64,000 nucleotides of DNA from Myxococcales bacterium (GCA_016794365.1 JAEUKB010000025.1:52693-116692); one strand, 5' to 3'. Positions 26,140 through 60,000 are shown, counted from the stretch's first letter. Translations and numbers: made by a program. The notes: generated by a model from the letters alone, not told the origin.

Positions 26140-27537
26140 GCAGGCAAACAGCCACAAGAGCAGGGTCAGGAGTCGCAGCCGGATGCCTTCCCACAGCGCA
26201 GTCTGGGTTGCGAGCGGCTGAGACTCGGGCAGACTCCACAGCCACGCAAAGTGCGAGGCAAACGCCGACACCACCTGCGTAGACTCTGTTTCAATGTCGG
26301 TTTCCAGATACGCACCACAGAACGAGTTCGGGGTGAAGTTGGCTTGGCCTCCGATAAGACGCGGCCTACGTCCCTGCTTCGCAATGGTCTTGAGATGCAT
26401 CATCTGACCGTGCCGCGAGGAATGAATGCGTACCTGGAAGCGGTCGGCAAAGCGTAGCTGCAAGTCCTTTGCATCTACGAGCACAAGATGATTCACCAAG
26501 TGCTGGGTCAGCCAGGCCGGAATCGCTGGCAGTGGCAGCGCAGCAAGAGAGTCCCACAGCACCCGCACAGACACCCCGCGCAGCAAGGCTTGTTCGAGCT
26601 GCGCAAGCAGTCCGCGATCTGAAAAATACGCGGTCGCGATCAGCACTTCTTCCCCTGCTTCTGCATCATCGATCAGCGCGCAGATCCGATCGCGAATCTG
26701 CTTGGTATCAAGCAGCTGGCAGTGCGGATCCGGGGTCAGCGCAGTCAGTGCATGCGGTACGTCTTCCCAAGGAATCGGATAGTCAGCGATCGGAATTTTG
26801 CGCGGACAGAGTACTTCGTGATTGATTCCTACCGTCGCTGATACGTCTTCCTGTAGGAGCCGCTGGAGCTGCTCCCGGTCCCCTTCCTTCCAGGTGTATG
26901 GAAGCTCGATCGCGGCTTGCAGTGCTCGGATCGCGGTCTGCCATAGCTTGTGCGCGACATCACCCACCAGCCAGAACATGTTTTCATGCCAGTCGTACGC
27001 GGGATCAAAGAAGTTGTGGCTGGTGACAAGTCCAGCGCGACCGCCATCAATCACCAAGTTCTTGCGATGATCTTCGACATTGTGCAGTGACTGCCAGCGA
27101 TTCTGCTGCGCAACGAAGTCCTGAGCAGACACTTTGTGATGATGCAGATGGAAGTTCATCGCAGGCAGCAGCCGACGATGTCGCGCAAACTCTACTTGAA
27201 ACAGATTTGCATGTAGGACGATCACGCCAGCGTCTTCTAGCTGCTTGCGAACCAGCTCTCCCTTGCGTCGTGTTCGCTGCGGATTGTCTGGCGTGTTGGT
27301 GTCCAAGATCACCACGATGATGACCTGGGGATCGCGCCGCTTTTTGTCGCGCAGCCAGCGTGCCACCGTATGTGCGTACGGAAACGAGCCTTCGCGCGGC
27401 AGAAGCAGCGTCTGATCCCCGCTGGCAGCAAACAGATACATCTGCAAGATGATGCTGTGCTGCGCCGCAAAGATGAGCTGATAGACCGCTGACAAGAGCG
27501 CGTGTCGATCACCCAGATAGCCAAGCTGCGAAGTCAT
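26122..27537 (-). CDS. phospholipase D-like (HKD superfamily) protein with C-terminal TM anchor
   Basis: First HKD motif HHKVSAQD; degenerate second motif HLKTIAKQ...GGQANFT; last gene of a 4-gene operon. Confidence 0.55.
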   Translation of the reverse strand: MTSQLGYLGDRHALLSAVYQLIFAAQHSIILQMYLFAASGDQTLLLPREGSFPYAHTVARWLRDKKRRDPQVIIVVILDTNTPDNPQRTRRKGELVRKQLEDAGVIVLHANLFQVEFARHRRLLPAMNFHLHHHKVSAQDFVAQQNRWQSLHNVEDHRKNLVIDGGRAGLVTSHNFFDPAYDWHENMFWLVGDVAHKLWQTAIRALQAAIELPYTWKEGDREQLQRLLQEDVSATVGINHEVLCPRKIPIADYPIPWEDVPHALTALTPDPHCQLLDTKQIRDRICALIDDAEAGEEVLIATAYFSDRGLLAQLEQALLRGVSVRVLWDSLAALPLPAIPAWLTQHLVNHLVLVDAKDLQLRFADRFQVRIHSSRHGQMMHLKTIAKQGRRPRLIGGQANFTPNSFCGAYLETDIETESTQVVSAFASHFAWLWSLPESQPLATQTALWEGIRLRLLTLLLWLFACLGLRP

Positions 27538-34328: not shown

Positions 34329-36635
34329 CTATCGCTGCCAGTTCCATTCGATTCCGAAGAACACCTGACGATATCCTGCGGGCTGAATTCCCGACGGAGC
34401 ACGGCTGGCGATGTAGATCTGATTGCCAAGGTTTTTTCCAGCCACGTAACCAGTCAGGCCAAGGCGTCGGTAGGTGTAGGCGATGCGCGCATCGATCGTC
34501 AGATAGCCAGGAATCTCTCCGACCAGTCCGTCGCGTGACGAAAAGGTGGTATTTTCTTTGTCCGCAAACTGTTTGCCGACATAGCCAAGCTGGACCTGTG
34601 CTTCGATTCCGATGCGATGCGCCACGCGATACTGCGCGTTCAGCTGATGCATCGGAGCATACGGCAGTCGGAGTCCGTCATTGATGCCTCCGACAAACAT
34701 CGCCATGGGGACAAACGTATATCCAAAGGAGATCGGAATCGACAGAGCGGACCAGCCAAGGGGGCCCGCAACATCGAACATTCCGGATGATTCCAGACCG
34801 ATGTGACGACTCCTTCCGGCGTTAAAGGAACCCGCAGAGACAGCGCCTCCTGACTCACTGGGCGGAATGATCTGGTTTTCAAACTCCAGCCAAAAGCCGG
34901 TGGCTTCGAAGCTGAGCCAGCGTCCTACTTGCAGTCGCGTACCCAGCTCACTGTTCCATGACAGCTCTGGATCGAGCTGAAGATCTTGTCCAGAAGGAGA
35001 CACCGCATCCTTGGATCGTGGTGGGGCGTAGCCGCGATGAACCCCTGCATACAGCGTCATGGGATCGATGACTTTGGCAGAGACTCCGATGCCAGGAATT
35101 GCTGCGAAGCTAAACGCTTCCCCCAACGAGTCGGTGTTGCGTGATGCCATGGTTCCATCAGGCTGCCGGACCTGCTGACGAAGGACGCGTCGATCAGAGA
35201 AGTAGTTTTCGATCCGGACACCGGGCGTGACAAACAGTCTGTCCCACAGCGCAAAGCGATTTTGAATCGCTGCGGCGACTGCGTAGCCATGGCGAAGCTC
35301 ATCATCGCGAATGTCACCGGATAGATCGGTCGGTGTCTCGGTTCCCAGAATCTGTTCACGCGCGCGCTCATAGTGAAGACGAACCAGCGCTGTCAGCTCT
35401 CCTTTGAATGCGGAGGATGCCTTCCAGTTCCACAGCAGTCGCGGCTCGATTCCTGCGACTTCATATTGACGATTGCGAATCACTGAAGAGCTTCGGAAGT
35501 AGACTGATCCACCGTCAGATGTTGGCCTGATCTCAGGGCTTCCACGCAGACCACAGCGAGCCTGCTCATCACAGATCCGCTCATACGGAATTCCCTGATC
35601 TTGGCGATCGTATTCCTGTCGTCTCCATGCGCGCGCAGTGTGATAGCCATAGAGCACGGTCTGGAGCTGGAGAGACTCTCTTAGCCACTGCTGATGCGTT
35701 ACAGAGGCCGCGTAGCGACGAACCAAGAATCGATCGTTGTGCGCAAGGTTTAGGTACGGATCGTGCGCAAACTGCGCGGTGGTTGGTCCCAGATACGTTG
35801 CAGCAGAGGACTCATCGTAGACGCTCAGCTTGACACGCAGCACCGATGTCTGGGAAAGCTGAAGCCGCAGCTTGGCTGTTGCATCCGTCAGCGCGAGATC
35901 GAGCTTTCTTGGACCGTCAAACCTTCGGTGCGAGACATCAACTTGCCAGCCTACTGATCCATGCGTGGCACCGATTCCTGCTTGCGCCAGGACATAACCA
36001 AAGGAGCCGTAACGTACATCGGCCCGAGCGGCCAGATCAGACGGTGGATCGCGCGACAGAAAGTTAATCACGCCACCGATGGTCTGCGGTCCATACAGAA
36101 TCTGACCGCTTCCTTTGAGGACTTCGATTCGCTCCATTCGCTCGATCGGGGGCGTGTAGTACTGCTCTGGAACGCCATACGGATTGAGCGTGATGGGAAC
36201 GCCATCTTCCAGGACCAGAACCTTGCGACTGCGATTCGGATCAAGTCCGCGAATGCCGATGTTGAGTCGCAGACCGATTCCTTCTTCAGACACCACATGA
36301 AGTCCGGGCACGCTGCGGAGTACGTCTGCACTGCTCTGTGCTGCTTGCCTGCGAATGTCTGACTGCGTGATCAGGGCGACGGTACCGGGAATCTTGTCAA
36401 TCGGTCGGATGGCACGTACCAAGGTAGACAGAGACGGACTGGAAGACAGAGACGGACCGGAAGACGGAAGTGACTGCGCAGACTCTTGTGGCAACGAGGG
36501 GTCAGACACAATCGCATCCGGCGATGCGGCGGATTGATCCACACCCTGTGCTTGCGTGCGCTCTGCATGCAAAGACAGCAGCGCAGCCAAGAGGAGCTGA
36601 GCAGAGCGCGTACTGTAAGGACTCTGTACGATCAT
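34329..36635 (-). CDS. TonB-dependent outer membrane receptor
   Basis: Signal peptide, plug domain, 22-strand barrel features, C-terminal aromatic terminus (WNWQR). Confidence 0.9.
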   Translation of the reverse strand: MIVQSPYSTRSAQLLLAALLSLHAERTQAQGVDQSAASPDAIVSDPSLPQESAQSLPSSGPSLSSSPSLSTLVRAIRPIDKIPGTVALITQSDIRRQAAQSSADVLRSVPGLHVVSEEGIGLRLNIGIRGLDPNRSRKVLVLEDGVPITLNPYGVPEQYYTPPIERMERIEVLKGSGQILYGPQTIGGVINFLSRDPPSDLAARADVRYGSFGYVLAQAGIGATHGSVGWQVDVSHRRFDGPRKLDLALTDATAKLRLQLSQTSVLRVKLSVYDESSAATYLGPTTAQFAHDPYLNLAHNDRFLVRRYAASVTHQQWLRESLQLQTVLYGYHTARAWRRQEYDRQDQGIPYERICDEQARCGLRGSPEIRPTSDGGSVYFRSSSVIRNRQYEVAGIEPRLLWNWKASSAFKGELTALVRLHYERAREQILGTETPTDLSGDIRDDELRHGYAVAAAIQNRFALWDRLFVTPGVRIENYFSDRRVLRQQVRQPDGTMASRNTDSLGEAFSFAAIPGIGVSAKVIDPMTLYAGVHRGYAPPRSKDAVSPSGQDLQLDPELSWNSELGTRLQVGRWLSFEATGFWLEFENQIIPPSESGGAVSAGSFNAGRSRHIGLESSGMFDVAGPLGWSALSIPISFGYTFVPMAMFVGGINDGLRLPYAPMHQLNAQYRVAHRIGIEAQVQLGYVGKQFADKENTTFSSRDGLVGEIPGYLTIDARIAYTYRRLGLTGYVAGKNLGNQIYIASRAPSGIQPAGYRQVFFGIEWNWQR

Positions 36636-36647
36636 GGGATGCTGCTC

Positions 36648-38762
36648 TTAGTCGTGATCACCTTCCACGCGACGCGGCGGAGCGATCGATAGCGCAGCGG
36701 TGAAGTCTTGCTTGAGAGAGTCTGTGAGCAGCTTGATCGCGTCATAGATGCGCAGCACAGACATGCTGTCGGACTGAAGTTTTTGCGAAAGACTCTGATC
36801 CCCGAGCTGCGCGATCACAGCTTGGGCACCGTCGATGTCTCGCAAGATTCGGTTTGTCACATCATCCGCAGAGACAGAGCGCAGCAGATCATCAAAGCCA
36901 AGTGCGGCTGGGGATTCTCGGCCTCCCAAAAACAGTGTACGGAATCCTGTGAGGTTGTTTTGCAGATGCTCTCTGTCTGCATCGGCCCACTGCGACTCGA
37001 GTGCTTCAGGACACAGTGGCTTTGTGCAGTCGCGTAGACCGAGCGGCTGCGCCAACTTGCGATCTTTGACTGTGATCTCCAGATAAAACAGCGCTTCACT
37101 GACGGAGTTTAGCGCTGCTTGCTGGGTTGCGTAGACGACGCTGCCCTGGCCTGCGCTGGCAAGCTGAATCAGAAAGTTTCCTTTTTCCCAGGCTGAAAGG
37201 AGTGTCCGAACTTGGGTGAGGAGATCGGCCACAGCCGCTTTGGCATACGCTACCTTTCGCTTCTGTAGCTCTGTTATAGACAGTGCAGCCCAGGTTCCCA
37301 TGGCATTGATCGGAGCATCTGCCGCACAGCCGTTGTCCGTTCCTTTGTAGAACAAAAGATACTCCAGCGCGCCGAGTCCTCTTCCTGATTCTGCCGTCGC
37401 TGGGAACAGCTCTCCTTCATAGATGCGACTGACCAGCTGCTGATCGATGACACAGCGACTTTGATCAGGAAATGCATAGATTTTGTTGCGCAGACCAAGC
37501 CCGCCAGCACTGGGCGCACTGGCCAGAGGACCGAACTGAAATAGCTCGACTTGTTGCCACGCTGCCATTGCGCGCTTCCATGCTCTCTGTGATGCAAGGC
37601 TCGGGGCTTCTTGGTCTTGCTCGATGGCTTGGGCGAGCAGGATCGCTTCCTGTTCAAAGCCTCGATAGGAAGTCAGTGCCGCTTCTCCCAAAGAAGTCAG
37701 CAGGGCTGCGCGATCGATGCGCTTGCTTGATGTGCAGCCGATAAGACAGAGCAGCACCGATAGACCGATTCCGGTCCGCAGAGCTGAGCGGTAGCGACGA
37801 AGGATTGTGTAAAGCATGATGGCTGTCTCCTGAAGAGGACGAAGTAGTGCAGCCATGACCGTCGGGTAGGGCTGCGATAAGGGGCCTTCCAGTCCGAAGC
37901 GGGGAGGAGTCTGGTTGTGCGCAGACAGATGCGTACCAAACAGTCGATCCCAGACTGCAAGAACAGTCCCAAAGTTGCGATCATGATGTGCGGACGCTGC
38001 GCTGTGATGAAGCTGATGCTGCGCAGGGCTGATCAGCCACTGCTCGATGCGCGCACCGTAGGAAAGAAAGACATGGGAATGGCGAAGATTTGCGCCACAC
38101 AAGCTCCAGACAAAGCCGATCGCATCGACCCCAAGGAGCTCAAAGCAGTAGAGCTGGGAACCAAACAGATAGATCAAACATCCCGTCGCTGTTCCCATTG
38201 TCAAGGCACCACGTAAGCCACTGAGGATTCCTTCGAGCGGATGGGTGCGATACAAAGAAAATGGCGTCAGCACTTCCGCAGAGTGATGGACTTTGTGCAG
38301 CGTCCATAGGATCGGAATGCGATGCATCAGCAAGTGCAGCGCGAAGTGACTGAAGTCATCGATCAGAAACAAGATCAGCGTGCTTAGCAGTCCCAAAAGC
38401 AGCGGCGGCATGGTCAGCAGAGGCGGCGGTCCACACAGTGCGTGCAGTCCGCGATGAACCTGCTGCGTGATCGTGATCACAGACACAAACAGCGGTGCCA
38501 ACAGCGTCGCTTTCAGGACTGCTTTGACCCACAGCAGCTTGTAGTCAAGCAGTGCGGAAGGATGCAGACAGACAGCGGGAGAAAGCAGCGCGGAGAGCTG
38601 CCGCCACGGCTTCTGTTTTGGTGCGCTGCGCACAAGTCCGATCAGCACCGCAACCAAAAGAAATGGTGCAAAGACACGCTTAGCTGGATCCAGGAGCATC
38701 GTCGCTGGAGCCGTCAGCGCATCCGTCAGCGGAGCAATCAGTGTGCGGAGCAGCTCGGCCAT
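36648..38762 (-). CDS. fusion protein: N-terminal fatty acid hydroxylase/sterol desaturase (membrane diiron, His boxes) + C-terminal imelysin-like (EfeO/IrpA-like) periplasmic domain
   Basis: His boxes HKVHHS and HQLHHS with TM helices in the first ~300 aa; C-terminal four-helix-bundle region with an imelysin-like GALEYLLF motif. Confidence 0.6.
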   Translation of the reverse strand: MAELLRTLIAPLTDALTAPATMLLDPAKRVFAPFLLVAVLIGLVRSAPKQKPWRQLSALLSPAVCLHPSALLDYKLLWVKAVLKATLLAPLFVSVITITQQVHRGLHALCGPPPLLTMPPLLLGLLSTLILFLIDDFSHFALHLLMHRIPILWTLHKVHHSAEVLTPFSLYRTHPLEGILSGLRGALTMGTATGCLIYLFGSQLYCFELLGVDAIGFVWSLCGANLRHSHVFLSYGARIEQWLISPAQHQLHHSAASAHHDRNFGTVLAVWDRLFGTHLSAHNQTPPRFGLEGPLSQPYPTVMAALLRPLQETAIMLYTILRRYRSALRTGIGLSVLLCLIGCTSSKRIDRAALLTSLGEAALTSYRGFEQEAILLAQAIEQDQEAPSLASQRAWKRAMAAWQQVELFQFGPLASAPSAGGLGLRNKIYAFPDQSRCVIDQQLVSRIYEGELFPATAESGRGLGALEYLLFYKGTDNGCAADAPINAMGTWAALSITELQKRKVAYAKAAVADLLTQVRTLLSAWEKGNFLIQLASAGQGSVVYATQQAALNSVSEALFYLEITVKDRKLAQPLGLRDCTKPLCPEALESQWADADREHLQNNLTGFRTLFLGGRESPAALGFDDLLRSVSADDVTNRILRDIDGAQAVIAQLGDQSLSQKLQSDSMSVLRIYDAIKLLTDSLKQDFTAALSIAPPRRVEGDHD

Positions 38763-39898
38763 CAGTAGTTGATCTTGCTGTCTTCTACTTGCGCTGCGGT
38801 CAGTCCGTAGATCGTCGCGATCTTTTGGATGGTCAGCGTAAGCTTTGGTAGCTCATCCACAGAGCTGGTGATGAACTTGTACGCAGTGGACTCTGTACCC
38901 GGATCGGACAGAAGCAGCCGAAGCAGCTCATCCACTTGCGCATCTGTGATGATGCGACGATCTGAAGGAAGCTGACGCCAGCCATGCACAAAGCCGACGG
39001 CTTCCCCCAGCGCATGCAGCGCTGCGGACTGATCAGCCGCCGTTGGTGCTGCTGCGCTGAGCTTCTTGCTGGCATCGTTTAGGTAGTAAATCACCGTCTG
39101 AAACGTAGCTCGTTCCCACTCTGTTCGGAACACTTGCAGAGACGCGCTGACTTCACCTGTGCAGGCGCTTCCTTTTTGCAGCGCAGCTTGTGCGCGAATC
39201 ATCGCTTGCTTGATCTTCAGGTACGGACCCGGATTGAGCGGATCGCGCTTGTCACGACGCTTGGCGTAGGCTGCGACAAACTCATCAGGATGTTGCATCG
39301 CAGCGGTGTCTGCTGGAAAGCTTGCATGCGCACCGAAGATCGCGATCAGTCGATCCAGTGTGGCCACAGAGACAGGCTGTGACAGAAGGGACAGCGCGTG
39401 GTTGTACAGGGCTGCGGCAAACATTCCTTTTTCGATCCCCTGCCGCAGATCAACCCCTTGTGCAGAGAAAATATAGGAACCGAACTTGCCTCCTGTTCCA
39501 CTGGGAATTGCCGTCGGAGTCCAGTTGTTTCCAGCCGCTTTTTCAAAGGCCGCAAACAGCGTTTCAACTCTAGGTGCGTAGTAGCTGCTGGTGAGCGATC
39601 GCAGGCTGGGATTTCCAGCATTCCATAGCGCCATCAGCTCTGTCTGGGAAGGCTTCACAGACAGACTGGCTTCCGCATCTTTGAGCGGCTGAAGCATCGC
39701 TTTGAACCTGGTTCGGACCTCGCGCTCGACGACGGTGTTCTGATCGTAGGAGTCGCTCTGATAGCTGTCTGGAAGGGCAGACAGCTCGCAAGCGGGTGGC
39801 GGCTCTGTCATTTCATGCTGACCCTCATCGCAAGCCAGCAGAGAAACAGAGAACAGGAGAGCGCTGTAGGGGGTGGGTTTCACGGCGAGTTGCTCCAC
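38762..39898 (-). CDS. putative lipoprotein associated with the TonB receptor / imelysin locus
   Basis: Lipoprotein signal (LLACDEG); no confident domain. Confidence 0.5.
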   Translation of the reverse strand: MEQLAVKPTPYSALLFSVSLLACDEGQHEMTEPPPACELSALPDSYQSDSYDQNTVVEREVRTRFKAMLQPLKDAEASLSVKPSQTELMALWNAGNPSLRSLTSSYYAPRVETLFAAFEKAAGNNWTPTAIPSGTGGKFGSYIFSAQGVDLRQGIEKGMFAAALYNHALSLLSQPVSVATLDRLIAIFGAHASFPADTAAMQHPDEFVAAYAKRRDKRDPLNPGPYLKIKQAMIRAQAALQKGSACTGEVSASLQVFRTEWERATFQTVIYYLNDASKKLSAAAPTAADQSAALHALGEAVGFVHGWRQLPSDRRIITDAQVDELLRLLLSDPGTESTAYKFITSSVDELPKLTLTIQKIATIYGLTAAQVEDSKINY

Positions 39899-40239
39899 TT
39901 GTTGGACGATCTGCTTGATCGCGATCGTGTCCGTTGAATTTGAAAACGCTTTTCATTTTCTAACTGATTCAGGGTCTGTCAAGTACGAACTGCGCAAGCA
40001 GGGCTTGTCTGATCCCTGTTAATTAAGGCGAATTACCGTCGCTGATTGGTGCGGTGTGGACGAACTCTTTGCGCCAGAGCAGCCCAGATGAGATGTGGAA
40101 TTTGTCGGACCAATTTCAAGGCGCTGTGCAAGTGAACCGGGATGTGCGGACCACATGCTGCCCAGGATCGCTGTCTTACCGCTGGGTCAGTGAGCGATTC
40201 CTATCCTGTGAGTCCTGTATCTCCACAGTACATTGTAGG

Positions 40240-42689: not shown

Positions 42690-42750
42690 TTCCGCGCGCT
42701 AAGCGGCCTGTGGCAGGCCTTACGGTCTATCTGTTACCGACGCTGTGCTG

Positions 42751-42984
42751 TCAGCTTGCGCTGCGATCCAGTTCTTCCAGGGCTTGCGCAAACCAGCGCT
42801 TCACAGACTGGTAATGCTGCTCTCCGTACAGGGATCGAAAGCTACGATTTTCTGCGCTGTTTTGCTCTGACAAGGTGGCGATTCGTGCGGTCACATAGGG
42901 CCTGGTGAGCTGGATTCCGCACTTGACGGTGATGCAATGTTTCCACTGCGCATAGGTCGTGGGAATGGACGAATGACTCATCAT
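42751..42984 (-). CDS. small hypothetical Cys/His-containing protein (78 aa from internal ATG; the longest ORF extends to 43029 into the AT-rich operator region)
   Basis: WKHCITVKCG motif; divergent from the COG0523 operon across a Zur-box-like region. Confidence 0.35.
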   Translation of the reverse strand: MMSHSSIPTTYAQWKHCITVKCGIQLTRPYVTARIATLSEQNSAENRSFRSLYGEQHYQSVKRWFAQALEELDRSAS

Positions 42985-43010
42985 CCTGAGACTGTAGTGC
43001 AGTTTTTTGT

Positions 43011-43031
43011 AAACGCAACTAATTTGCATTT
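43011..43031. promoter_or_regulatory. Zur-box-like palindrome copy 1 (AAAcGCAA-N5-TTGCATTT)
   Basis: AT-rich 21-bp dyad in an otherwise GC-rich genome, in the divergent intergenic region. Confidence 0.4.
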
Positions 43032-43075
43032 ACACTCTTAAAATATTCTAATTTCATTCGATGTCCTTAGAATTT

Positions 43076-43096
43076 AAATGCAATTGATTTGCATTT
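43076..43096. promoter_or_regulatory. Zur-box-like palindrome copy 2 (AAATGCAA-ttgat-TTGCATTT), ~58 nt upstream of the COG0523 gene
   Basis: AAATG-N11-CATTT architecture, the same as the gamma-proteobacterial Zur box; adjacent to a COG0523 zinc-chaperone gene. Confidence 0.5.
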
Positions 43097-43153
43097 GAAT
43101 TGGGCTATGTGTTACCGATGAAGTGCGGCTGAAATGACAGCGCGTAGATCGAC

Positions 43154-44533
43154 TTGAGACTGCTGGAGACTCCGATGACTGCTGACTCGCGTGTGCCGGT
43201 GACTGTACTGACAGGATTTCTGGGGGCCGGAAAGACGACACTCCTGAACCGCATCTTGAACGAGCAGCACGGCAAGCGGATCGCCGTGATTGAGAACGAG
43301 TTTGGCGAAGTCGGGGTTGATCAAGAGCTGGTGATCGGTGCAGAAGAAGAGATCTTCGAGATGAACAACGGCTGCATCTGCTGCACCGTGCGCGGCGATC
43401 TGATCCGCATCCTGGGAAGCTTGATGAAGCGACGTGAGAAGTTTGACTTCATCTTGGTGGAGACCACAGGACTGGCCGATCCGGGGCCCGTTGCACAGAC
43501 ATTCTTCGTCGATGATGAGCTACGCAGCAAGCTGCGACTGGATGGCATTGTCACGGTGGTGGATGCACATCACATCGCGCAGCACATTGATGACAGCGAA
43601 GAAGCGCGCGAACAGATTGCGTTTGCCGATGTGATCATCTTAAACAAGATTGATCTGGTGACGCAGCAGCAGGCGGATGCGCTGTGTGAACGACTGCATC
43701 GAATGAACGGACCCGCGAAGCTGCTTCGTGCGCAGAATGCAGACATTGCGATTGCGCAGATTCTACATGTTGGCGGCTTCAACCTTCAGCGGGCGATGGA
43801 AGTGGACCCGAAGTTCTTGGAACCAGAGTATCCCTTTGAGTGGGCCGGAGTCTTTGCGTTCGACGCTGAACGTTATCGCTTGTCGCTTCAACCAGGGCCG
43901 GATCCACTGATGGATGTTGCGATCTTGGCGGCTTACGGAAGTGTGCTGACTGGTTCTGCAAGCGAGCTGATTGGGCAGCAGACAGAGCCTGCGGTGCGAC
44001 TGTTTGCAGAGCATCCGCAGCGGGTGTCAAAAGACTCTCAACTGTGGCCCAGTCGTGCGCCTTGGCAGATGGAGATTTCCGGTGGTGGCGACTTCATCCT
44101 TACGATAGGACAGAGTGGTCATTATGTTTTGTTTACCGAGCATCAACCCACAGAGTTTTCGCTGCGGATTCTGTCTTCTGTGGGGGAAGTGAAGCCACTT
44201 GCAGAGCGTCTGTTTAAGCCCGATCACGAGCATGATGACGAAGTCACTTCGGTCGGAATCGAGCTACCCGGCAGCGTCGATCCTGTGCGCGTGAACAAGT
44301 GGCTGGGAACCCTTCTTCAGCAGCGTGGACAAGACATTTTCCGATCGAAGGGAGTCCTAAGCGTCAAAGGAGAGTCGCGCCGACACATCTTCCAAGGTGT
44401 TCACATGCTGCTTGATGCACAACCGGATCGCCCGTGGGGACCGAGCGAGCCGCGTATCAACAAGCTGGTGTTCATTGGTCGCAACCTGGATCGCGCAGAG
44501 CTACAGCGTGGCTTTCGGAGCTGCTTGGTATAG
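43154..44533 (+). CDS. COG0523/CobW-family GTPase (zinc metallochaperone, ZigA/YeiR-like) with CobW_C domain
   Basis: P-loop [11 protein letters not shown], CxCC motif GCICCT, switch regions, C-terminal CobW_C; TTG start on the track with an in-frame ATG at +21. Confidence 0.9.
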
Positions 44534-44551
44534 CCAGATGAGGATGCGCAC

Positions 44552-45271
44552 ATGCTGTTTTTCTTTCATCCAGGCAGCGGCGTGATGATTGGCTCTGCGG
44601 CGCTTTTGGGCCTGACGCTGGGCGCAAGACACGCACTGGAGCCGGATCATCTGGCCGCTGTCTCTGCAATGACGATTGGGAGTCGCAGTCCTTGGCATGG
44701 TGCGGCTCTCGGTGTGCTGTGGGGCGTCGGACATTCGCTGGCGCTGCTCTGCTTGGGCGGACTGCTGCTCTGTTTGGGGAAGAAGACTCCACCGTATGTG
44801 GAGACTGCGATTGAGCTGGTCACTGCGATTGCGATGCTGTGGATTGGTCTTCTGAGCCTGCTGCGGCGACCCCTTGCGCGACCGCTTGATGCGATGGGAC
44901 AGGGAGACGTGCGAGCGACTCTGCTGCAACCATTGCCGCGTCGCATGGGTCAGCGGACATTGCTTGTGGGGTTTGTTCACGGTCTGGGCGGAAGTGGGGC
45001 GCTGATGGCGTTTCTCGTCGTTGGATTGCGTGGCACGCTGGCGCGGCTCTTGTATCTGCTGCTCTTTTCTGTGGGTTCGATTGTGGCGATGGCGCTGCTT
45101 TCGGGACTGCTTGGCTGGCCTGCAACCAGACTCGCTGCGTATCCGCGTGTGGAGCGCGCCTTGTGCATCGCTGCGGGACTCCTCTCTGTTGTGATTGGGA
45201 TGTCCTATCTGTCTCGCGTACTGTCTGTGGATTCCAGTCCGGTCTTTGTCCGTGCAGAGGGAAGCGTATGA
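44552..45271 (+). CDS. NiCoT/NicO-like divalent metal transporter family membrane protein (6 TM, HAxxxDH motif)
   Basis: HALEPDH signature in TM2, multiple TM helices; GAGGA RBS; translationally coupled to neighbours. Confidence 0.55.
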   Translation: MLFFFHPGSGVMIGSAALLGLTLGARHALEPDHLAAVSAMTIGSRSPWHGAALGVLWGVGHSLALLCLGGLLLCLGKKTPPYVETAIELVTAIAMLWIGLLSLLRRPLARPLDAMGQGDVRATLLQPLPRRMGQRTLLVGFVHGLGGSGALMAFLVVGLRGTLARLLYLLLFSVGSIVAMALLSGLLGWPATRLAAYPRVERALCIAAGLLSVVIGMSYLSRVLSVDSSPVFVRAEGSV

Positions 45272-46305
45272 GTCCGAAACGATCTCAAGGAAAGACTGCT
45301 GCAAGGGAACTGAATCCGAAGTGGCGTACGCAGCTCTCTGATCACGTCATCGGTCTGTGCTGGCATCCGAGCTGCAAGTCGATCGCTGTGGCAACCGTGG
45401 ATGGACACGTTGCGCTGATCGATGCAGCAGATGGACGCACAATTTGGCAGCGACAGATCCATCGCGTAGGTGCAGCAGACTTGCATTTGTCAGTGCAGGG
45501 AGATCGCCTGGTCAGCGCAGGTCACGACGGAGTGGCCAAGCTCTTATCGGCGGATGGCGGGGATGTTATCGCAGAGCTGCCAGGTGGAACGAGCTGGGTC
45601 GAGCGTGTCTCTTTTAGCCCAAGCGGAGAGCTGATCTTGGTCGCAGCAGGTAAGCATGTCCGTCTGTTTGGAAGTAGCGGTGAGCTGCTGCTTTCGCTGC
45701 CGGATACACCGTTTACTGTGTCTGACATCGCGTGGTTCCATCACGATCCGTGCTTCGCGGTGCTGACGTACGGGGTGCTGCGGTTGTTCGTGCCAAGCGA
45801 GACAGATCCCGTGCAGAGCTATGAGTGGAAGGGCTCCATGCTGAAGCTGGCGGTGAGTCCCAACGGTCGCTATCTGGCCACTGGAAATCAGGACTGTAGC
45901 GTTCATCTGTTTTTGACTGGAACCACCAAAGATCTTGAGATGTCGGGATACCCAGCGAAGGTCCGCTTGCTAAGCTGGGATCATCAGAGTCGGTTTCTGG
46001 CGACGGGCGGCGGCGCAGCCTGCTGTGTCTGGGACTTTGCGGGTGGCGGTCCAGCAGGAAGCAAGCCCAAGACGCTGTCGGCTTCCCGCAGTCCCCTGTC
46101 AGCGCTGGCTTTTCAGCATCGGGGAGAGCTTCTTGCGTCGGGGAATGAAGACGGAACGCTGGCACTCTGGCTTCCCAAACAGGATGAAGTCGTGCGCGGT
46201 CAGGTATGCTTAGCGGCAGAGATCTCGCAGCTTGGGTGGGCTCCCGATGATCGCGGGCTTGCCGCAGGATGTGCAGATGGATCGGTCTGTTTCTTTGCGC
46301 TGTAG
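45268..46305 (+). CDS. WD40/beta-propeller repeat protein
   Basis: Repeated ...DG.V.L.D..G... WD-like blades; start set at internal ATG overlapping the upstream stop (ATGA) with a GAGGGA RBS. Confidence 0.7.
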   Translation: MSPKRSQGKTAARELNPKWRTQLSDHVIGLCWHPSCKSIAVATVDGHVALIDAADGRTIWQRQIHRVGAADLHLSVQGDRLVSAGHDGVAKLLSADGGDVIAELPGGTSWVERVSFSPSGELILVAAGKHVRLFGSSGELLLSLPDTPFTVSDIAWFHHDPCFAVLTYGVLRLFVPSETDPVQSYEWKGSMLKLAVSPNGRYLATGNQDCSVHLFLTGTTKDLEMSGYPAKVRLLSWDHQSRFLATGGGAACCVWDFAGGGPAGSKPKTLSASRSPLSALAFQHRGELLASGNEDGTLALWLPKQDEVVRGQVCLAAEISQLGWAPDDRGLAAGCADGSVCFFAL

Positions 46306-46356
46306 CGGCACGGATGCTTGAAGATCTTCGTCGCTGCGCTGAAGAATTTTGATTAC

Positions 46357-46377
46357 AAATGCAATTCATTTGCATTT
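46357..46377. promoter_or_regulatory. Zur-box-like palindrome copy 3 (AAATGCAA-ttcat-TTGCATTT) ~19 nt upstream of the phosphodiesterase-family gene
   Basis: Near-identical to the 43076 copy. Confidence 0.5.
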
Positions 46378-46395
46378 GATTTACCATCGTACGCA

Positions 46396-47313
46396 ATGTG
46401 TATCTTGCGGCTGATCCCCTGGTTCTTGGTGGTCACTTGCTTGCTCGGGCAAAGCGCCTCTGCGCAGCATGAGGGCTCTGCTGCTGCGCCTGTTGCTGCT
46501 GTGACTCCGCCGGTTCGACGAGTCCAGCATGTGCTGGTCATCAGCGAGGACGGAATGCATCCGGCGCTGATCCAAAAACAGACGCTTCCCAATCACGAGC
46601 GCTTGTATCGTAACGGCGCATATTCTTTTGTGGCGCGAACCATCAGCACTGCTTCGACACTCCCATCTCATGCTGCGATGCTATCGGGGGTCGATGTCTA
46701 TGAGCACGGTCTGCGCTGGAACAACTGGCGACCCACGCTGGGCTTTATCAAGACGCCCACGATTTTTTCACTCGCTACAGAGGAGGGACTGTCTACCTCT
46801 GCTGTCGTTGGGAAGTTCAAGCTGCGTCACATCCTGCCGCAAGGGACGGTCGATTCCTTTCTGCGTCCGGGCTACTTCTGTCGAAAGGTTAGTGAAGAAG
46901 CGGCGCAGCAGATTCGGAATGGACAGCCCGAGCTGATGTTCGTTCACTTTTCGGATCCTGATGAGCACGGTCACTCAAGTGGCTGGCTGTCGGCGGCGCA
47001 GTGGCAAGCTGCCAGAGAGTGCGATCGCTGCTTGGGAATCATTCTGTCTGCACTGGATGCGGCAGGCACGCTGGATGACACTCTGGTCATTGTGTCGGCG
47101 GATCACGGCGGACATGGCAGCGGTCACAGCGGCATTCGGCTAAGCGACATCCAGATTCCGTGGATTGCGCACGGACCCAACGTCCGGCGCGGTCATGTGC
47201 TGCACAGCAAGGTCTCAACCATGGATACGGCTGCGACGGTGCTGTATGCGCTGGGACTGGTTCCCAAAGCCCGTCTGCGTGGCAAACCCGTCCGTGAGAT
47301 CTTCGCTCAGTAG
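46396..47313 (+). CDS. alkaline phosphatase superfamily, type I phosphodiesterase/nucleotide pyrophosphatase (Phosphodiest) family protein, secreted
   Basis: Signal peptide; metal-ligand motifs (VSADHGGHG..H) typical of the ENPP/Phosphodiest family. Start moved to internal ATG (M27), since the longer ORF would cover the operator. Confidence 0.75.
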   Translation: MCILRLIPWFLVVTCLLGQSASAQHEGSAAAPVAAVTPPVRRVQHVLVISEDGMHPALIQKQTLPNHERLYRNGAYSFVARTISTASTLPSHAAMLSGVDVYEHGLRWNNWRPTLGFIKTPTIFSLATEEGLSTSAVVGKFKLRHILPQGTVDSFLRPGYFCRKVSEEAAQQIRNGQPELMFVHFSDPDEHGHSSGWLSAAQWQAARECDRCLGIILSALDAAGTLDDTLVIVSADHGGHGSGHSGIRLSDIQIPWIAHGPNVRRGHVLHSKVSTMDTAATVLYALGLVPKARLRGKPVREIFAQ

Positions 47314-56067: not shown

Positions 56068-57465
56068 ATGCCTACACCGTTTGATCCAGCGGGTCTGCTC
56101 GATCTGTCCAAAGCCAAGCGAACCGATTTTGTCGAACTTCCCAAAGTGCTCGCGGCGTACAAACCGAAGCGGGAATCCGACAAGGAAAATGTGCTGTTTG
56201 ATGCGCCGCCAGAGCATACAGATCTGGAATCCCTGAAAGCTGCGAAGCCGTTTGATCCGAGCCTCTTTTATAGCTTCAGCTCACTGCTTGGCGGACTCCC
56301 TTCCGGTCCGGCAGTGGTGATGGGACTGTTCCGCTGTCAGGGTCGCGAGCAGGTGGTGGTGCGACTGTTCGATCCGCAGCGACCGCAGGACGGAGTGCCG
56401 CTTTCGCCGATGTATTTTTTGCTACACAGAGGCCACGCGCAGCTGGCCAAAGACAAGCAGTGGGTGTCCCAAGATGCACCGCTGTGGCTGGCTCTGTACG
56501 CAGCGGCGTACTACAGCATGATCGAGGATCGAAAGGCGTTTTATCGGCGCGAAGATCTGGGTGGACCGGACAACGCGGCCTGGCTGGTTCTGTACGGAAA
56601 GGACAGCAGTCGCGCCAAGTATCCCAAGGAAGAAGCGCAAGGCGAAGGAGAGGAAGGGGGCGACGGAACCAGAGCACTCCTTCATCAAGTCTTGGGATGT
56701 CACAGCGAGCTACCGAACCTGGATCTTTATCAAGATGCGCTGTCGATCCTCGATCCGAAGGTTCAGAAAAAGTACAGCAAGGCGTGGCAGGCGTTCCTAG
56801 ACAAGCGTCCCTATGTTCCGTCGTCGGGACTGCGCACCGGACTGCGCGCAACGTCGATGCAGCTCTGTAGCATGATGGATGCGTGGCTGCGCAGCAAGCC
56901 GGGTCTGTGTGAAGAACAGATCTCGCTGCTGTTGTGGTATCTGGAAGCAAACGGAGCGATCGCGGAAAAAGGAAAGCAGCGCTATCACAAAGGGGCGCGG
57001 AGCCTGTGGCAGGGTGTGCAGCAGACGCTGGTGAAGCGGACTCCGTGTGCGCTGACGGTTCGCAAAGACAGCCCGCTGCTGGCGGTGCTTCCGGATCGGA
57101 AGAGCAAAGAAGAAGAGGAAGAGGACGCTGGACGGACGTGGGAAGTCGTCTCTGTCGGAGCGCTGGATCTGCCGCCCAAGAAAGAAGAGTCGCGTCGGCT
57201 GCTGTTTGTGGGAATCGCGGATCGCAGTGGCACTGGCCGCAAGTTTGTGTGGGAAGAGACAGACAAAGAGTCCCAGCGATTCAAGCTACAGACCAAGCCC
57301 AGCAAAAAGGGAGAGTTCTGGATCGAGCTGGATCAGATCATGACGGAAGTGGATCGCATCCATGTGGGCGCAGCCGCGAAAGTAGCGCTGGCGAGTCAGG
57401 GAGACGGACAGACGTTTGTGCTGTCCGGAGAACGGAACCTGAAGCTCGATTGGAAGCAGCAGTGA
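56068..57465 (+). CDS. hypothetical protein (465 aa, no recognised domain)
   Basis: Strong AAGGAG RBS; mixed alpha/beta composition with Lys/Glu-rich segments; co-directional with the patatin gene. Confidence 0.5.
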   Translation: MPTPFDPAGLLDLSKAKRTDFVELPKVLAAYKPKRESDKENVLFDAPPEHTDLESLKAAKPFDPSLFYSFSSLLGGLPSGPAVVMGLFRCQGREQVVVRLFDPQRPQDGVPLSPMYFLLHRGHAQLAKDKQWVSQDAPLWLALYAAAYYSMIEDRKAFYRREDLGGPDNAAWLVLYGKDSSRAKYPKEEAQGEGEEGGDGTRALLHQVLGCHSELPNLDLYQDALSILDPKVQKKYSKAWQAFLDKRPYVPSSGLRTGLRATSMQLCSMMDAWLRSKPGLCEEQISLLLWYLEANGAIAEKGKQRYHKGARSLWQGVQQTLVKRTPCALTVRKDSPLLAVLPDRKSKEEEEEDAGRTWEVVSVGALDLPPKKEESRRLLFVGIADRSGTGRKFVWEETDKESQRFKLQTKPSKKGEFWIELDQIMTEVDRIHVGAAAKVALASQGDGQTFVLSGERNLKLDWKQQ

Positions 57466-57488
57466 AGCAGAAATTCCGTACAAAAGAT

Positions 57489-57585
57489 GAAACAGACTTG
57501 CATCTGTAACGAAGCGGAAGCGGCGATTCTGTGAAGAAGAAGGCGCAGAGATGCTGCACAGAAGCTGAAACAGACTTGCATCTGT
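57489..57585. repeat. two copies of a 19-bp hairpin-forming element (gaaacagacttgcatctgt) 78 bp apart
   Basis: Each copy contains acaga-N6-tctgt dyad; located between convergent genes. Confidence 0.6.
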
Positions 57586-57603
57586 GTGGGATTCTGTTTG
57601 GAA

Positions 57604-57687
57604 GGGAATCGCGAAAGGAATGGGAAGGGAATCGCGAAAGGAATCGCGAAAGGAATCGCGAAAGGAATCGCGAAAGGAATCGCTTGC
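57604..57687. repeat. 12-bp tandem repeat (aatcgcgaaagg)x~6 abutting the stop codon of the rlmB-like gene
   Basis: Perfect copies with one variant unit; ends exactly at the minus-strand stop at 57687. Confidence 0.8.
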
Positions 57688-58493
57688 TACTGAAGTCGCT
57701 GCTGACGGAGACACTCGTACAACAGGACGGCTCCAGCGGCAGAGACATTGAGCGATGCACCGTGCAGACCGGACGGCATGGGAATCTCAGCCCGGAGATC
57801 ACAGGTCTTGCGCACGAGCGGACGCAGACCACTCCCTTCCCCGCCAAGCACGACGCCAATCGGAACCGACAGATCCAGATCCCACAGCGGCTGTCCGCCT
57901 TGACCGGGAGCAACCGCAGCGACGAGCCACAGTCCTCCCTCTTTGAGCTGTTCCATCGCGCGTACCAGGTTGGCAACCTTGACGATCGGAAGCTGTGAGG
58001 TCGCTCCAGCGGCGGCTTTGATGGCTCCAGCGGTGACTTGCGCGGCGCGATCTTGCGGAATCACCACTGCATCGGCTCCCAGCACACAGGCCGAACGAAT
58101 CAGCGCACCCAGGTTTTGGGGGTCGGTCACTCCGTCGAGGATCAGCACAACCGGAGTCTTCCCAGCTTCCTGCGCGCGCCGCACCGGAGCCAGTGGATCG
58201 CTCTCATACGCGAACTCTGCACACAGCGCGACCACTCCTTGATGGACGCCGTTTTGACTGATGCGATCCAGCTCACTGCGCGACTTGAGGACCGGACGAA
58301 TGCGTGCTTTTTCAGCAGCCTGACGCACGAGCGACAGCGCATCGGGCTTTTCGTCGCGACCCGGCTTTGGGTCTGGCTTGCTTCCTTCGAGCAGATACAG
58401 CGACTGAACGTCTTGGGGACGCCGCTCGAGGACTTCACGAACAGCGTGGATTCCGTAGATCACTTGCGCGGACGGGCTTTGCTGTAGTTGCAT
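57687..58493 (-). CDS. rlmB: TrmH-family 23S rRNA (guanosine-2'-O)-methyltransferase RlmB-like
   Basis: N-terminal IYGIHAVREVL substrate-binding domain, SPOUT motifs (GVHQGVVAL, VVLILDGVTDPQNLGALIR, VIPQDR). Start set at internal ATG M84; the upstream ORF segment is SQSV-repeat junk. Confidence 0.75.
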   Translation of the reverse strand: MQLQQSPSAQVIYGIHAVREVLERRPQDVQSLYLLEGSKPDPKPGRDEKPDALSLVRQAAEKARIRPVLKSRSELDRISQNGVHQGVVALCAEFAYESDPLAPVRRAQEAGKTPVVLILDGVTDPQNLGALIRSACVLGADAVVIPQDRAAQVTAGAIKAAAGATSQLPIVKVANLVRAMEQLKEGGLWLVAAVAPGQGGQPLWDLDLSVPIGVVLGGEGSGLRPLVRKTCDLRAEIPMPSGLHGASLNVSAAGAVLLYECLRQQRLQ

Positions 58494-58593
58494 GCCCGCC
58501 TTGTACCGGAAATTCCGGCGGAAGCCCACGAAGTCGAGCGCACAGGTGGTGATTTGCAGCGCATCGCCACAATGTGAGCGCTTCGGCTGGGGG

Positions 58594-60000
58594 TCACGGA
58601 CGGACTGGCTGACCGATTGGCTGACCGAGCGGCTGACCGATTGGCTGACCGAGCGCCCGCAGCAGCTGAGCCCGCGCACTGGCGAGCGCATACTCCGCTT
58701 GCACAAGCTGCGCCGACGCTGTGGTGAAGGCAAGCTGCGCATCGCCCAGCTCGATCATGCTACCGACGCCGGTTCGATAGCGCGCTTCCGCAAGTCGCAG
58801 TCGTTCCCCGGCGCTCTGCTGGGCTTGCTGCACGGCAACACAGGTCGCTTTGCTGGCGCGCACTTGCAGCCGGGCCGACGAAAGCTCGACGCGGACTTGC
58901 TGACGGAGGCTCTGCAACTGGGCATCCAGCGCGGTCAGGTTGGCGCTCTGTTCTTTGACCTGCGACAGCGTGAGCAGACCTTGAAAGATCGGCCAGCTCA
59001 GGTTGACCGACGCGCTGAGGTTGAGCGCCAGCTGCGAGATGTTTGTGCCCGCATCGGTTAGGCTCATCGTGGCCCCGAGCGACGGTCCGTACCCACCTTT
59101 GGCTGCCGAAAGAAGCAGCTTCTGCGCCGCAAGCTGTCGGGACAAGACCAGAAACTCGGGCCGCTCGGCGAGCGCGGTCGGCAACAGCTCCTCGGTGGGC
59201 TGATCTTCGCCGGGCACGGGCGGAAGCTGTTCGTCTTGCACATCAAAATCGACGCTGTCTTCGACGCCCATTGCGGCGCGCAGCTGGGCCTTGGCGATCT
59301 CGTAGCTGTTTTCGCTGGCAATCACCTGGACGGATGCGTTGGCGCGATCGGTGCGAGCCTGCGCGAGGTCGATCTCGGGCCGTGTTCCGACGGAAACAAA
59401 CGCAGTGACCTGAACCAAGTGACGATCCTGATTGGCCAGGTTGTCGCGTGCCACTTGCAGCAGCGCGCGCTGGGCCCGCGCCGCAAAGTAGGCATTTTGC
59501 ACGGTGGTCGCGATCTGTAGCGCGGTGACCTGCTCACTTGCGTGCTGGGCGTCGGCGCTGGCGGAAGCGGCCTGCCACCTGCGCGTCGTCTGTCCGAAGT
59601 CCCAGATGTACTGCGAAAGCTGCATGCCGAAGCTAAAGAAGTTGAAGGTATCGAGCGAGATCGCCGTCGCGCTGCTGGCAAACTGCGACGGAACGGCTCC
59701 CGGTCGAGCGACAAAGTTGGCGGTGGTGCGCTGATACGACGCTGTGCCGGTAAGCTGCGGCAAGATCGGGGCGCGGGCTTGATCGGCGCGGGCGCGGGCT
59801 GCCATCGTCTGAGCCCTTGCCAAAAGGAGCTGCGGCTGATGCTCTTTGGCCGTCTGGAGCGCGTCCTGCAAGCTCAGCACCTTCAGCGCGCTCGGTGGGG
59901 CCATGGCGGGCTGCGCTTGGGTCGCTCGCTCCTCGGCAGCAAGCGACGTAAGGGAAACCGGGCCCAGCACAGCGGCTGTCACGAACACGTAAGCTCTCAT
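58594..60000 (-). CDS. TolC-family outer membrane efflux protein with C-terminal (GQPI)n repeat
   Basis: Signal peptide, two OEP repeats; the C-terminal tail GQPIGQPLGQPIGQPV is encoded by a 12-bp DNA tandem repeat (58596-58650); 4-nt overlap with the upstream RR gene. Confidence 0.8.
   Translation of the reverse strand: MRAYVFVTAAVLGPVSLTSLAAEERATQAQPAMAPPSALKVLSLQDALQTAKEHQPQLLLARAQTMAARARADQARAPILPQLTGTASYQRTTANFVARPGAVPSQFASSATAISLDTFNFFSFGMQLSQYIWDFGQTTRRWQAASASADAQHASEQVTALQIATTVQNAYFAARAQRALLQVARDNLANQDRHLVQVTAFVSVGTRPEIDLAQARTDRANASVQVIASENSYEIAKAQLRAAMGVEDSVDFDVQDEQLPPVPGEDQPTEELLPTALAERPEFLVLSRQLAAQKLLLSAAKGGYGPSLGATMSLTDAGTNISQLALNLSASVNLSWPIFQGLLTLSQVKEQSANLTALDAQLQSLRQQVRVELSSARLQVRASKATCVAVQQAQQSAGERLRLAEARYRTGVGSMIELGDAQLAFTTASAQLVQAEYALASARAQLLRALGQPIGQPLGQPIGQPVRP

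Follow-up and report, generated by a model that had tools for sequence, protein, structure and literature searches.

Published binding sites of Zur, a Fur-family regulator, have been summarized as GAAATGTTATANTATAACATTTC in gamma-proteobacteria and as TAAATCGTAATNATTACGATTTA in Bacillus. Such sites typically overlap the -35 and -10 elements of the promoter and can occur in pairs; two Zur boxes each are present in the promoters of yciC (zagA) in B. subtilis and of znuA in S. coelicolor, and yciC is itself a COG0523 gene under Zur control. Moreover, Haas et al. (2009) reported that COG0523 genes of subfamily 5 and genes encoding WD40 proteins cluster together downstream of predicted Zur sites, and that DUF1826 genes belong to predicted Zur clusters. 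Here, we describe a stretch of 64,000 nucleotides (the window) from a Myxococcales bacterium (GCA_016794365.1, JAEUKB010000025.1:52693-116692), in which a 21-bp palindrome precedes a small orphan gene, an operon encoding a COG0523 GTPase, a permease and a WD40 protein, and a gene encoding a secreted phosphodiesterase. The arrangement and the gene neighbourhoods of this palindrome in other genomes indicate that the copies are very probably Zur boxes governing a zinc-starvation regulon of three units.

Three palindromes upstream of three transcription units

The palindrome, AAATGCAA-N5-TTGCATTT, is present in the window in three promoter-type copies:

43011-43031, predicted Zur box 1: AAACGCAACTAATTTGCATTT, a degenerate copy with 1 mismatch (AAACGCAA-CTAAT-TTGCATTT)
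43076-43096, predicted Zur box 2: AAATGCAATTGATTTGCATTT, an exact match
46357-46377, predicted Zur box 3: AAATGCAATTCATTTGCATTT, an exact match that extends to the 23-bp palindrome CAAATGCAATTCATTTGCATTTG

A preliminary description of this stretch had reported the palindrome at three sites, one of them degenerate, and this was borne out. Boxes 1 and 2 share a divergent intergenic region, with their centres 65 bp apart; the distance is 26 nt from box 1 to the start of the divergent small open reading frame (ORF) and 78 nt from box 2 to the COG0523 start codon. Box 3 is located downstream of the WD40 stop codon and ends 18 nt before an ATG at 46396, or 27 nt before a TTG at 46405, so that its position upstream of the Phosphodiest-family gene was correctly described, but not the distance of 19 nt. 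Two exact matches were seen where ∼2e-6 were expected from base composition, and six matches with up to 3 mismatches were seen where shuffling of the window gave an expectation of 0.17. The G+C content is 0.54-0.60 locally, with a window mean of 0.60, and not ∼65% as previously stated for the genome.

The predicted boxes follow the consensus nAAATGCAA-wtNwa-TTGCATTTn, which has a 23-bp 11-1-11 layout with outer AAATG and CATTT arms. This AT-rich inverted repeat has the operator layout of the Fur family (7-1-7, 9-1-9 or a 23-bp palindrome), and its two TGCA cores are 11 bp apart, approximately one helical turn, which is the spacing expected for a winged-helix dimer. The gamma-proteobacterial and Bacillus Zur boxes are likewise 23-bp AT-rich 11-1-11 sequences with outer AAAT(G/C)...(C/G)ATTT positions, and they are found upstream of znuA, COG0523 and ribosomal-paralog genes, as is the motif studied here. 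The AAATG-N11-CATTT architecture, already noted in the preliminary description as that of the proteobacterial Zur box, is the frame of the gamma-proteobacterial consensus. However, the inner core is not the same: that of the window is CAAwt/awTTG, that of gamma-proteobacteria TTATA/TATAA and that of Bacillus GTAAT/ATTAC. The pairing of boxes is also different, since boxes 1 and 2 serve divergent genes whereas those of yciC and znuA are stacked over one promoter.

Additional matches in the window were rejected as operators. The weak or core matches at 26456/26459, 27194, 45468 and 62262 are inside long ORFs and those at 57485/57563 are between convergent gene ends; thus, the three boxes are the only promoter-type sites in the window. 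The matches at 57485-57505 and 57563-57583 are two copies of AG[AC]TGAAACAGACTTGCATCTGT separated by 78 bp in a non-promoter position, between a gene at 56068-57465 (+) and a SpoU-type methylase gene at 57687-58742 (-), and are followed at ∼57600-57680 by about six tandem copies of GGAATCGCGAAA.

Recurrence and conservation of the motif

We scanned 185,579 reference genomes, one per species, for the exact motif and obtained at least 120 matching stretches, so that the counts given below describe a sample; none of the stretches listed came from a contig of the source MAG. Flanking ORFs with starts within 200-300 bp on either side of a match were considered, and 148 of them were scanned against Pfam. 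Among the matches listed, to which all cross-phylum figures refer, the families met most often in these ORFs were ZnuA (22), FUR (11), cobW (9), CobW_C (7) and MerC (6); next came domains associated with TonB receptors (3-4) and ZrgA (2 of the 148). In 48 of 109 loci (44%), an immediate neighbour of the motif encodes ZnuA, a Fur-family protein, COG0523 or ZrgA. Such a zinc-type neighbour is present in 16 of the 28 loci with a G+C content of at least 0.5, in which AT-rich matches are least to be expected by chance. The zinc-flanked loci include ones from Clostridia, Bacteroidota, Rhodocyclaceae, Methylophilus and metagenome-assembled genomes (MAGs) of Dehalococcoidales and Nannocystaceae, so that Betaproteobacteria, Dehalococcoidia and Myxococcota are represented as well. 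Judging from these neighbourhoods, the exact 21-bp variant is a marker of zinc genes in many phyla. The test that the preliminary description had set for its own hypothesis, recurrence of the motif upstream of canonical zinc genes, was thus passed, in other genomes. As a control, the TGCAA-N5-TTGCA core was absent from 399 kb of metagenomic loci carrying distant homologs of the permease and from five other control loci (∼75 kb).

Two membrane protein families also adjoin the motif, MerC-family proteins (6/148) and 10-transmembrane (TM) ArsP_2 exporters (3/148), and it is possible that they are unrecognised members of the Zur regulon in those lineages. At the 120 cross-phylum loci listed, the neighbours of the motif included no permease, WD40 or phosphodiesterase gene of the types found in the window, which indicates that these genes are lineage-specific additions.

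Closer relatives of the cluster were found among myxobacteria. In the locus L001 (GCA_964607205.1), the proteins are 80-89% identical to those of the window and the gene order is kept. Its boxes at 1328 (2 mismatches), 1393 (exact) and 4674 (exact) are equivalent to boxes 1, 2 and 3, and there is a fourth box at 6413, from which a DUF1826 gene is 80 nt downstream. In alignments of the two loci, the arms of the boxes form islands of identity, whereas the N5 spacer and the flanking intergenic DNA have diverged. The sites are thus conserved amid diverging non-coding DNA, and they recur in L126. In L126 and L127, where the permease is 44% identical to that of the window, the cluster comprises a TonB receptor, an L28 paralog, DUF1826, COG0523, a Fur-family gene, an ortholog of the phosphodiesterase, a 108-amino-acid protein, a second COG0523 protein, which is a close ortholog of that of the window, WD40 and a NicO-like permease. 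L126 has boxes at 1502, 1686, 2013, 4599 and 5555 (0-4 mismatches), one before each transcription unit; the box at 4599, upstream of the phosphodiesterase ortholog, is equivalent to box 3 but weaker. A predicted box therefore precedes the phosphodiesterase gene in all three lineages (window, L001 and L126). The Fur-family protein embedded in L126/L127 contains two CxxC pairs and is Zur-like. In L004 (permease 58% identical), COG0523, permease and WD40 genes form one long operon with DUF1826, L28 and L33 paralogs and a second COG0523 gene; the upstream end of this operon is missing from the contig. The WD40 gene keeps its place beside COG0523 and the permease in L001, L004 and L126.

Taken across the myxobacterial relatives, boxes precede genes for the L28 paralog, DUF1826, COG0523, the TonB receptor, the phosphodiesterase and the Fur-family protein. 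The motif is thus located before zinc-homeostasis genes in the window (COG0523), in its relatives and among its cross-phylum neighbours. Annotated members of the clade that includes the L126 Fur-family protein are found in MAGs of Myxococcales and Polyangia; in L136, a box lies between a gene of this clade and a TonB-receptor operon, and in L134, a core box follows such a gene. In L135 (8881-12586), a gene of the same clade is flanked on both sides by sulfatase/alkaline-phosphatase-superfamily genes, which is another link of this clade to enzymes of the alkaline phosphatase superfamily. Two further observations concern the COG0523 genes of these relatives. A small protein of 91-108 amino acids with an ELxCTEPGCPPLETV motif accompanies COG0523/WD40 operons (L126 5650-5976; L004 1859-2134) and is also found beside a COG0523 gene in a Cytophagaceae contig (L073 ∼2081-2284); it matches no Pfam family and is not present in the window. 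In addition, the coding sequence of the COG0523 metal motif (E-M-Q-N-G-C-I-C, AGATGCAAAACGGCTGCATCT) mimics a box at three mismatches in L004 (4323-4343) and L126 (2973-2993) and is a predictable false positive in scans for the box.

The comparison with the relatives bears on the possibility that the palindromes are non-regulatory repeats, such as repetitive extragenic palindrome-like sequences or remnants of mobile elements, or transcription terminators. In favour of this, the repeats are inverted, AT-rich and intergenic, and box 3 is located just past the WD40 stop codon. However, the arms are just 8 bp long and A/T-rich, without a G+C-rich stem or a run of T, and a terminator scan was negative there. 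The arms are kept while the 5-nt spacer varies, which indicates recognition by a protein and not the function of an RNA or DNA hairpin, and the sites are upstream of genes in every relative. The comparative data effectively refute this explanation, which we consider extremely improbable.

The sites could also be bound by another Fur paralog (Fur, Mur or PerR) or by an unrelated dimeric transcription factor, the zinc-like context being coincidental. In favour of this, the window contains no zur gene, and a different Fur-like palindrome, ATTTGAAAACGCTTTTCATTT, is found 3 kb away upstream of a TonB-receptor operon. This palindrome (39938-39958) lies ∼40 nt upstream of an operon at 34329-39898 (-) that encodes a DUF4856 protein, an imelysin/fatty-acid-hydroxylase protein and a TonB-dependent receptor. 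Compared with the predicted Zur box, its core shows a symmetric C-to-A/G-to-T change (TGAAA...TTTCA), and a different Fur paralog, e.g. an iron-responsive one, probably binds there. Its presence suggests that several Fur-family specificities coexist in the source genome, and the symmetry of the change suggests that the two kinds of site are read by different proteins, which argues against a common regulator. Moreover, the association of the motif with ZnuA, COG0523, ZrgA and Fur-family genes in 44% of the independent loci listed is specific for zinc, and iron or peroxide genes are not enriched among the 148 ORFs. We consider binding by such a regulator to be highly unlikely.

A nickel/cobalt regulon is a serious rival, as the core of the palindrome is Nur-like and the permease is NicO-like. 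In Streptomyces coelicolor, the Nur box is tTGCaa-N5-ttGCAA, and sodF and nikABCDE are the targets that Nur regulates according to nickel; the TGCAA-N5-TTGCA core is common to this box and to the window motif, which is flanked by zinc genes instead. The palindrome would then be the operator of a nickel/cobalt-responsive, Nur-like regulator of the Fur family and the cluster a nickel/cobalt acquisition module. In line with this, the permease has the HX4DH signature of the nickel/cobalt transporters (NiCoTs) and weak NicO/NiCoT matches, many of its homologs are fused to nitrile-hydratase accessory domains in nitrile-hydratase operons, and COG0523 also includes cobalt (CobW) and nitrile-hydratase activator members. 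However, no nik, sodN, urease, hydrogenase, B12 or nitrile-hydratase gene is found beside the motif, either in the 148 ORFs listed or in the myxobacterial relatives, and nickel, urease, hydrogenase and iron families are not enriched among these ORFs. The neighbours are ZnuA, ZrgA, L28/L33 paralogs and DUF1826, all of them hallmarks of zinc starvation, and the outer AAATG/CATTT arms are common to the published Zur boxes but not to the Nur box. Compared with TTGCAA-N5-TTGCAA upstream of nickel genes, the core fits 5 of 6 positions per half-site and has no nickel neighbour. This explanation appears highly unlikely to us in view of the neighbours of the motif.

The analysis shows that the sites are present and conserved and that they go together with zinc genes in this phylum and in others, and the Zur-regulon interpretation given in the preliminary description is supported by the boxes of the relatives and by the cross-phylum neighbours. 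Several points nevertheless weigh against it. There is no Fur-family gene in the 64-kb window, and when homologs of the Fur-family protein of L126 were searched in order to find the source MAG's zur gene, no JNM40_/MBL8632xxx protein was among them. The evidence for recurrence before znuABC comes from other genomes, not from the source MAG, and the cross-phylum counts are those of a sample. No box was found in L135, at a Fur-family locus of the L126 type, and a simple sigma-70 consensus scan of 42700-46500 found no promoter. Finally, there is the likeness of the core to the Streptomyces Nur box, and the permease is a member of a nickel/cobalt transporter superfamily. Hand-picked -35/-10 candidates, such as ATGCAA-17-TACCAT at box 3, are weak and we make no claim for them.

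Gene products of the cluster and the metal of the permease

The cluster encodes proteins identical to MBL8632561-64, which come from a 'Myxococcales bacterium' MAG. The features of the locus, apart from the boxes, are as follows:

42751-42984 (-), orphan small protein gene, divergent from box 1; 77 amino acids with 2 Cys and 3 His
43107-43174 (+), conserved leader located downstream of box 2 and before the COG0523 start; ∼68 nt, near-identical in L001, where the adjacent spacer has diverged
43175-44533 (+), COG0523 G3E GTPase; 452 amino acids, Pfam cobW 3.5e-63 and CobW_C 5.2e-25
44552-45271 (+), NicO-superfamily 6-TM permease; 239 amino acids, HALEPDH at residue 27, six hydrophobic stretches
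45268-46305 (+), WD40 beta-propeller protein; 345 amino acids, Pfam WD40 and beta-propeller families
46396-47313 (+), NPP-type phosphodiesterase of the alkaline-phosphatase superfamily; 305 amino acids, or 302 from the TTG at 46405 (NCBI model)

The gene content given in the preliminary description (COG0523 GTPase, 6-TM protein with HAxxxDH, WD40 protein and Phosphodiest-family gene) is confirmed by Pfam and by motifs. The divergent gene, which had been taken for that of a small Cys/His protein, is a different case. When it is compared with L001, 20 of the codon differences are synonymous and 10 are non-synonymous, 22 of 35 nucleotide changes fall at third positions, and this synonymous excess and third-position bias indicate that it evolves as a coding gene. 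The 77-amino-acid product has no Pfam or NCBIfam match, and its relatives amount to just two protein clusters at ≥90% identity in a search of 5.8 billion proteins. Given its low Cys and His content, the lack of a family match and its restriction to close relatives, it is an orphan and not a Cys/His metalloprotein.

The leader contains the tiny ORFs MCYR* and MKCG*. It has no Rfam match at E≤1 and folds no better than shuffled sequences (z = 0.19); a riboswitch-type element was rejected on these two grounds. It may contain a -10 element, a transcription start site, a 5' untranslated region or translational elements.

The COG0523 protein, identical to MBL8632561.1, is a putative zinc metallochaperone. 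It carries the Walker A motif GFLGAGKT and the CxCC metal motif CICC and, together with the cobW and CobW_C domains and the predicted Zur site upstream, it has the features of the zinc-linked COG0523 subgroup. The nearest solved structure is that of E. coli YjiA (6e-63). Its scores are under the equivalog cut-offs for YjiA, CobW and ZigA, and it is therefore not an ortholog of any of these named members. Between the GTPase and CobW_C domains, the proteins of the window and L001 contain an insert of ∼125 amino acids (residues ∼206-345; ∼43790-44230), which has no Pfam match, is not His-rich (3 His, 0 Cys) and is missing from the close ortholog in L126 (326 amino acids). Translational coupling of the operon, proposed in the preliminary description, applies to the permease/WD40 junction, where the WD40 start overlaps the permease stop (ATGA), but not to the COG0523/permease junction, which is an 18-nt gap with a GAGGA Shine-Dalgarno sequence.

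No signal sequence was seen in the WD40 protein, which is predicted to be cytoplasmic. It had been regarded as an unusual partner in a zinc module; however, the COG0523-WD40 pairing below predicted Zur sites was already reported by Haas et al. (2009), and the WD40 partner is thus not new. The likeness to the subfamily 5 clusters described there concerns gene context and not subfamily assignment. Neither a NicO-like permease between COG0523 and WD40 nor a Zur-controlled NPP-type phosphodiesterase is mentioned in that study.

The phosphodiesterase has a signal-like N-terminus and matches Pfam Phosphodiest at 3.7e-24 (86.4 bits, cut-off 23 bits). Its best match in PDB is the Xanthomonas NPP 2gsn, with which SEDG (Asp), STLPSH (Thr nucleophile), PDEHGH (Asp/His) and ADHG (Asp/His) are aligned. 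It lacks ∼100 amino acids of the Xanthomonas enzyme, and the last His ligand is presumably that of GSGHSG; with this ligand, the protein has the domain, the bimetal ligands and the Thr nucleophile of an NPP.

The permease had been described as NiCoT-like, and this holds for the HX4DH signature and the weak family matches but not for its length, TM count and scores. The HX4DH motif in an early TM helix is common to the NiCoT and NicO permeases (HoxN, NixA, NhlF; TC 2.A.52). However, NiCoTs have ∼330-380 amino acids and eight TM helices with HX4DH in TM2, whereas the window permease has 239 amino acids and ∼6 TM helices and scores under both cut-offs (Pfam NicO 23.7 bits versus 27.7; TIGR00802 18.6 versus 333 bits); it is therefore a relative within the NicO superfamily and not a NiCoT. 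Residues H27, E30, D32, H33, H61 and H143 are invariant in its clade (P0001-P0008), and no solved structural relative was found.

Members of the permease family are present in three contexts. The first is the narrow clade P0001-P0008, with COG0523, WD40 and predicted Zur boxes. In the second, the permease is fused to nitrile-hydratase accessory domains of the cobalt type within nitrile-hydratase alpha/beta operons. In L128 (8001-9158) and L129 (2101-3258), for instance, permease homologs fused to a nitrile-hydratase beta-like domain directly follow the alpha and beta genes, which suggests a cobalt-supply role for this branch. The third context is that of stand-alone genes; the distant homologs of L130-L133 have no boxes. 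A metagenome profile scan with the clade returned only homologs of ≤46% identity, in unrelated contexts. Owing to these three contexts, family membership does not reveal the metal substrate of the permease.

Proposed regulation and implications

We infer the identity of the binding protein, its mode of repression and the roles of the gene products, and also the overlap of the boxes with promoters, since the simple sigma-70 scan found none. With sufficient zinc, zinc-loaded Zur would occupy the boxes, located over the core promoters or close by, and prevent transcription. Under zinc scarcity, Zur would dissociate and the three units would be derepressed: the orphan small gene through box 1, the weaker site, the COG0523-permease-WD40 operon through box 2 and the secreted phosphodiesterase gene through box 3. 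The COG0523 protein would act as a GTP-dependent metal chaperone with the WD40 protein as its adaptor, and the NicO-like protein would be an inner-membrane metal importer feeding it. The phosphodiesterase may act in the periplasm as an enzyme with a bimetal site, which the cell would need, or re-metallate, when zinc is limiting.

In Pseudomonas aeruginosa, Zur-controlled cobalt uptake compensates for zinc shortage. This is a precedent for the import of a substitute metal under Zur control in zinc starvation, although the machinery differs from the window permease and consists of a pyochelin-cobalt receptor and other operons. By analogy, COG0523, permease and WD40 might form a self-contained, Zur-controlled route of import and delivery for zinc or for substitute cobalt or nickel, with the secreted phosphodiesterase, whose bimetal site is complete, as a possible client that is re-metallated or uses an alternative metal, i.e. 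zinc sparing by metal substitution. Here, the permease, recruited from the nickel/cobalt transporter superfamily, would take up the metal, and the GTPase chaperone, docked by way of the WD40 propeller, would pass it on to client proteins. We offer this as a tentative proposal, and a rather doubtful one.

Overall, this is an ordinary kind of Zur regulon with a few lineage-specific members. Two candidate lineage-specific members of the regulon appear modestly novel, namely the 6-TM permease of the NicO-like type and the minimal phosphodiesterase of the NPP type. Within the part of the open literature that was covered, we found neither a study of Zur in Myxococcota nor an account of any Zur/COG0523/WD40 operon with a NicO-type permease. 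The present analysis provides a usable Zur-box consensus and a first sketch of the regulon for Myxococcota. It also points to two candidate zinc-starvation functions that are off the standard lists, a short permease of the NicO superfamily, which in its narrow clade always accompanies COG0523 and WD40, and a minimal secreted phosphodiesterase of the NPP type. Should the permease import zinc or a substitute metal for the COG0523 protein, this would give simple genetic access to the question of how such GTPases, which are still poorly understood, acquire their metal. If the metal-substitution proposal is true, it would reveal a zinc-sparing strategy in a phylum for which we found no studies of zinc homeostasis.

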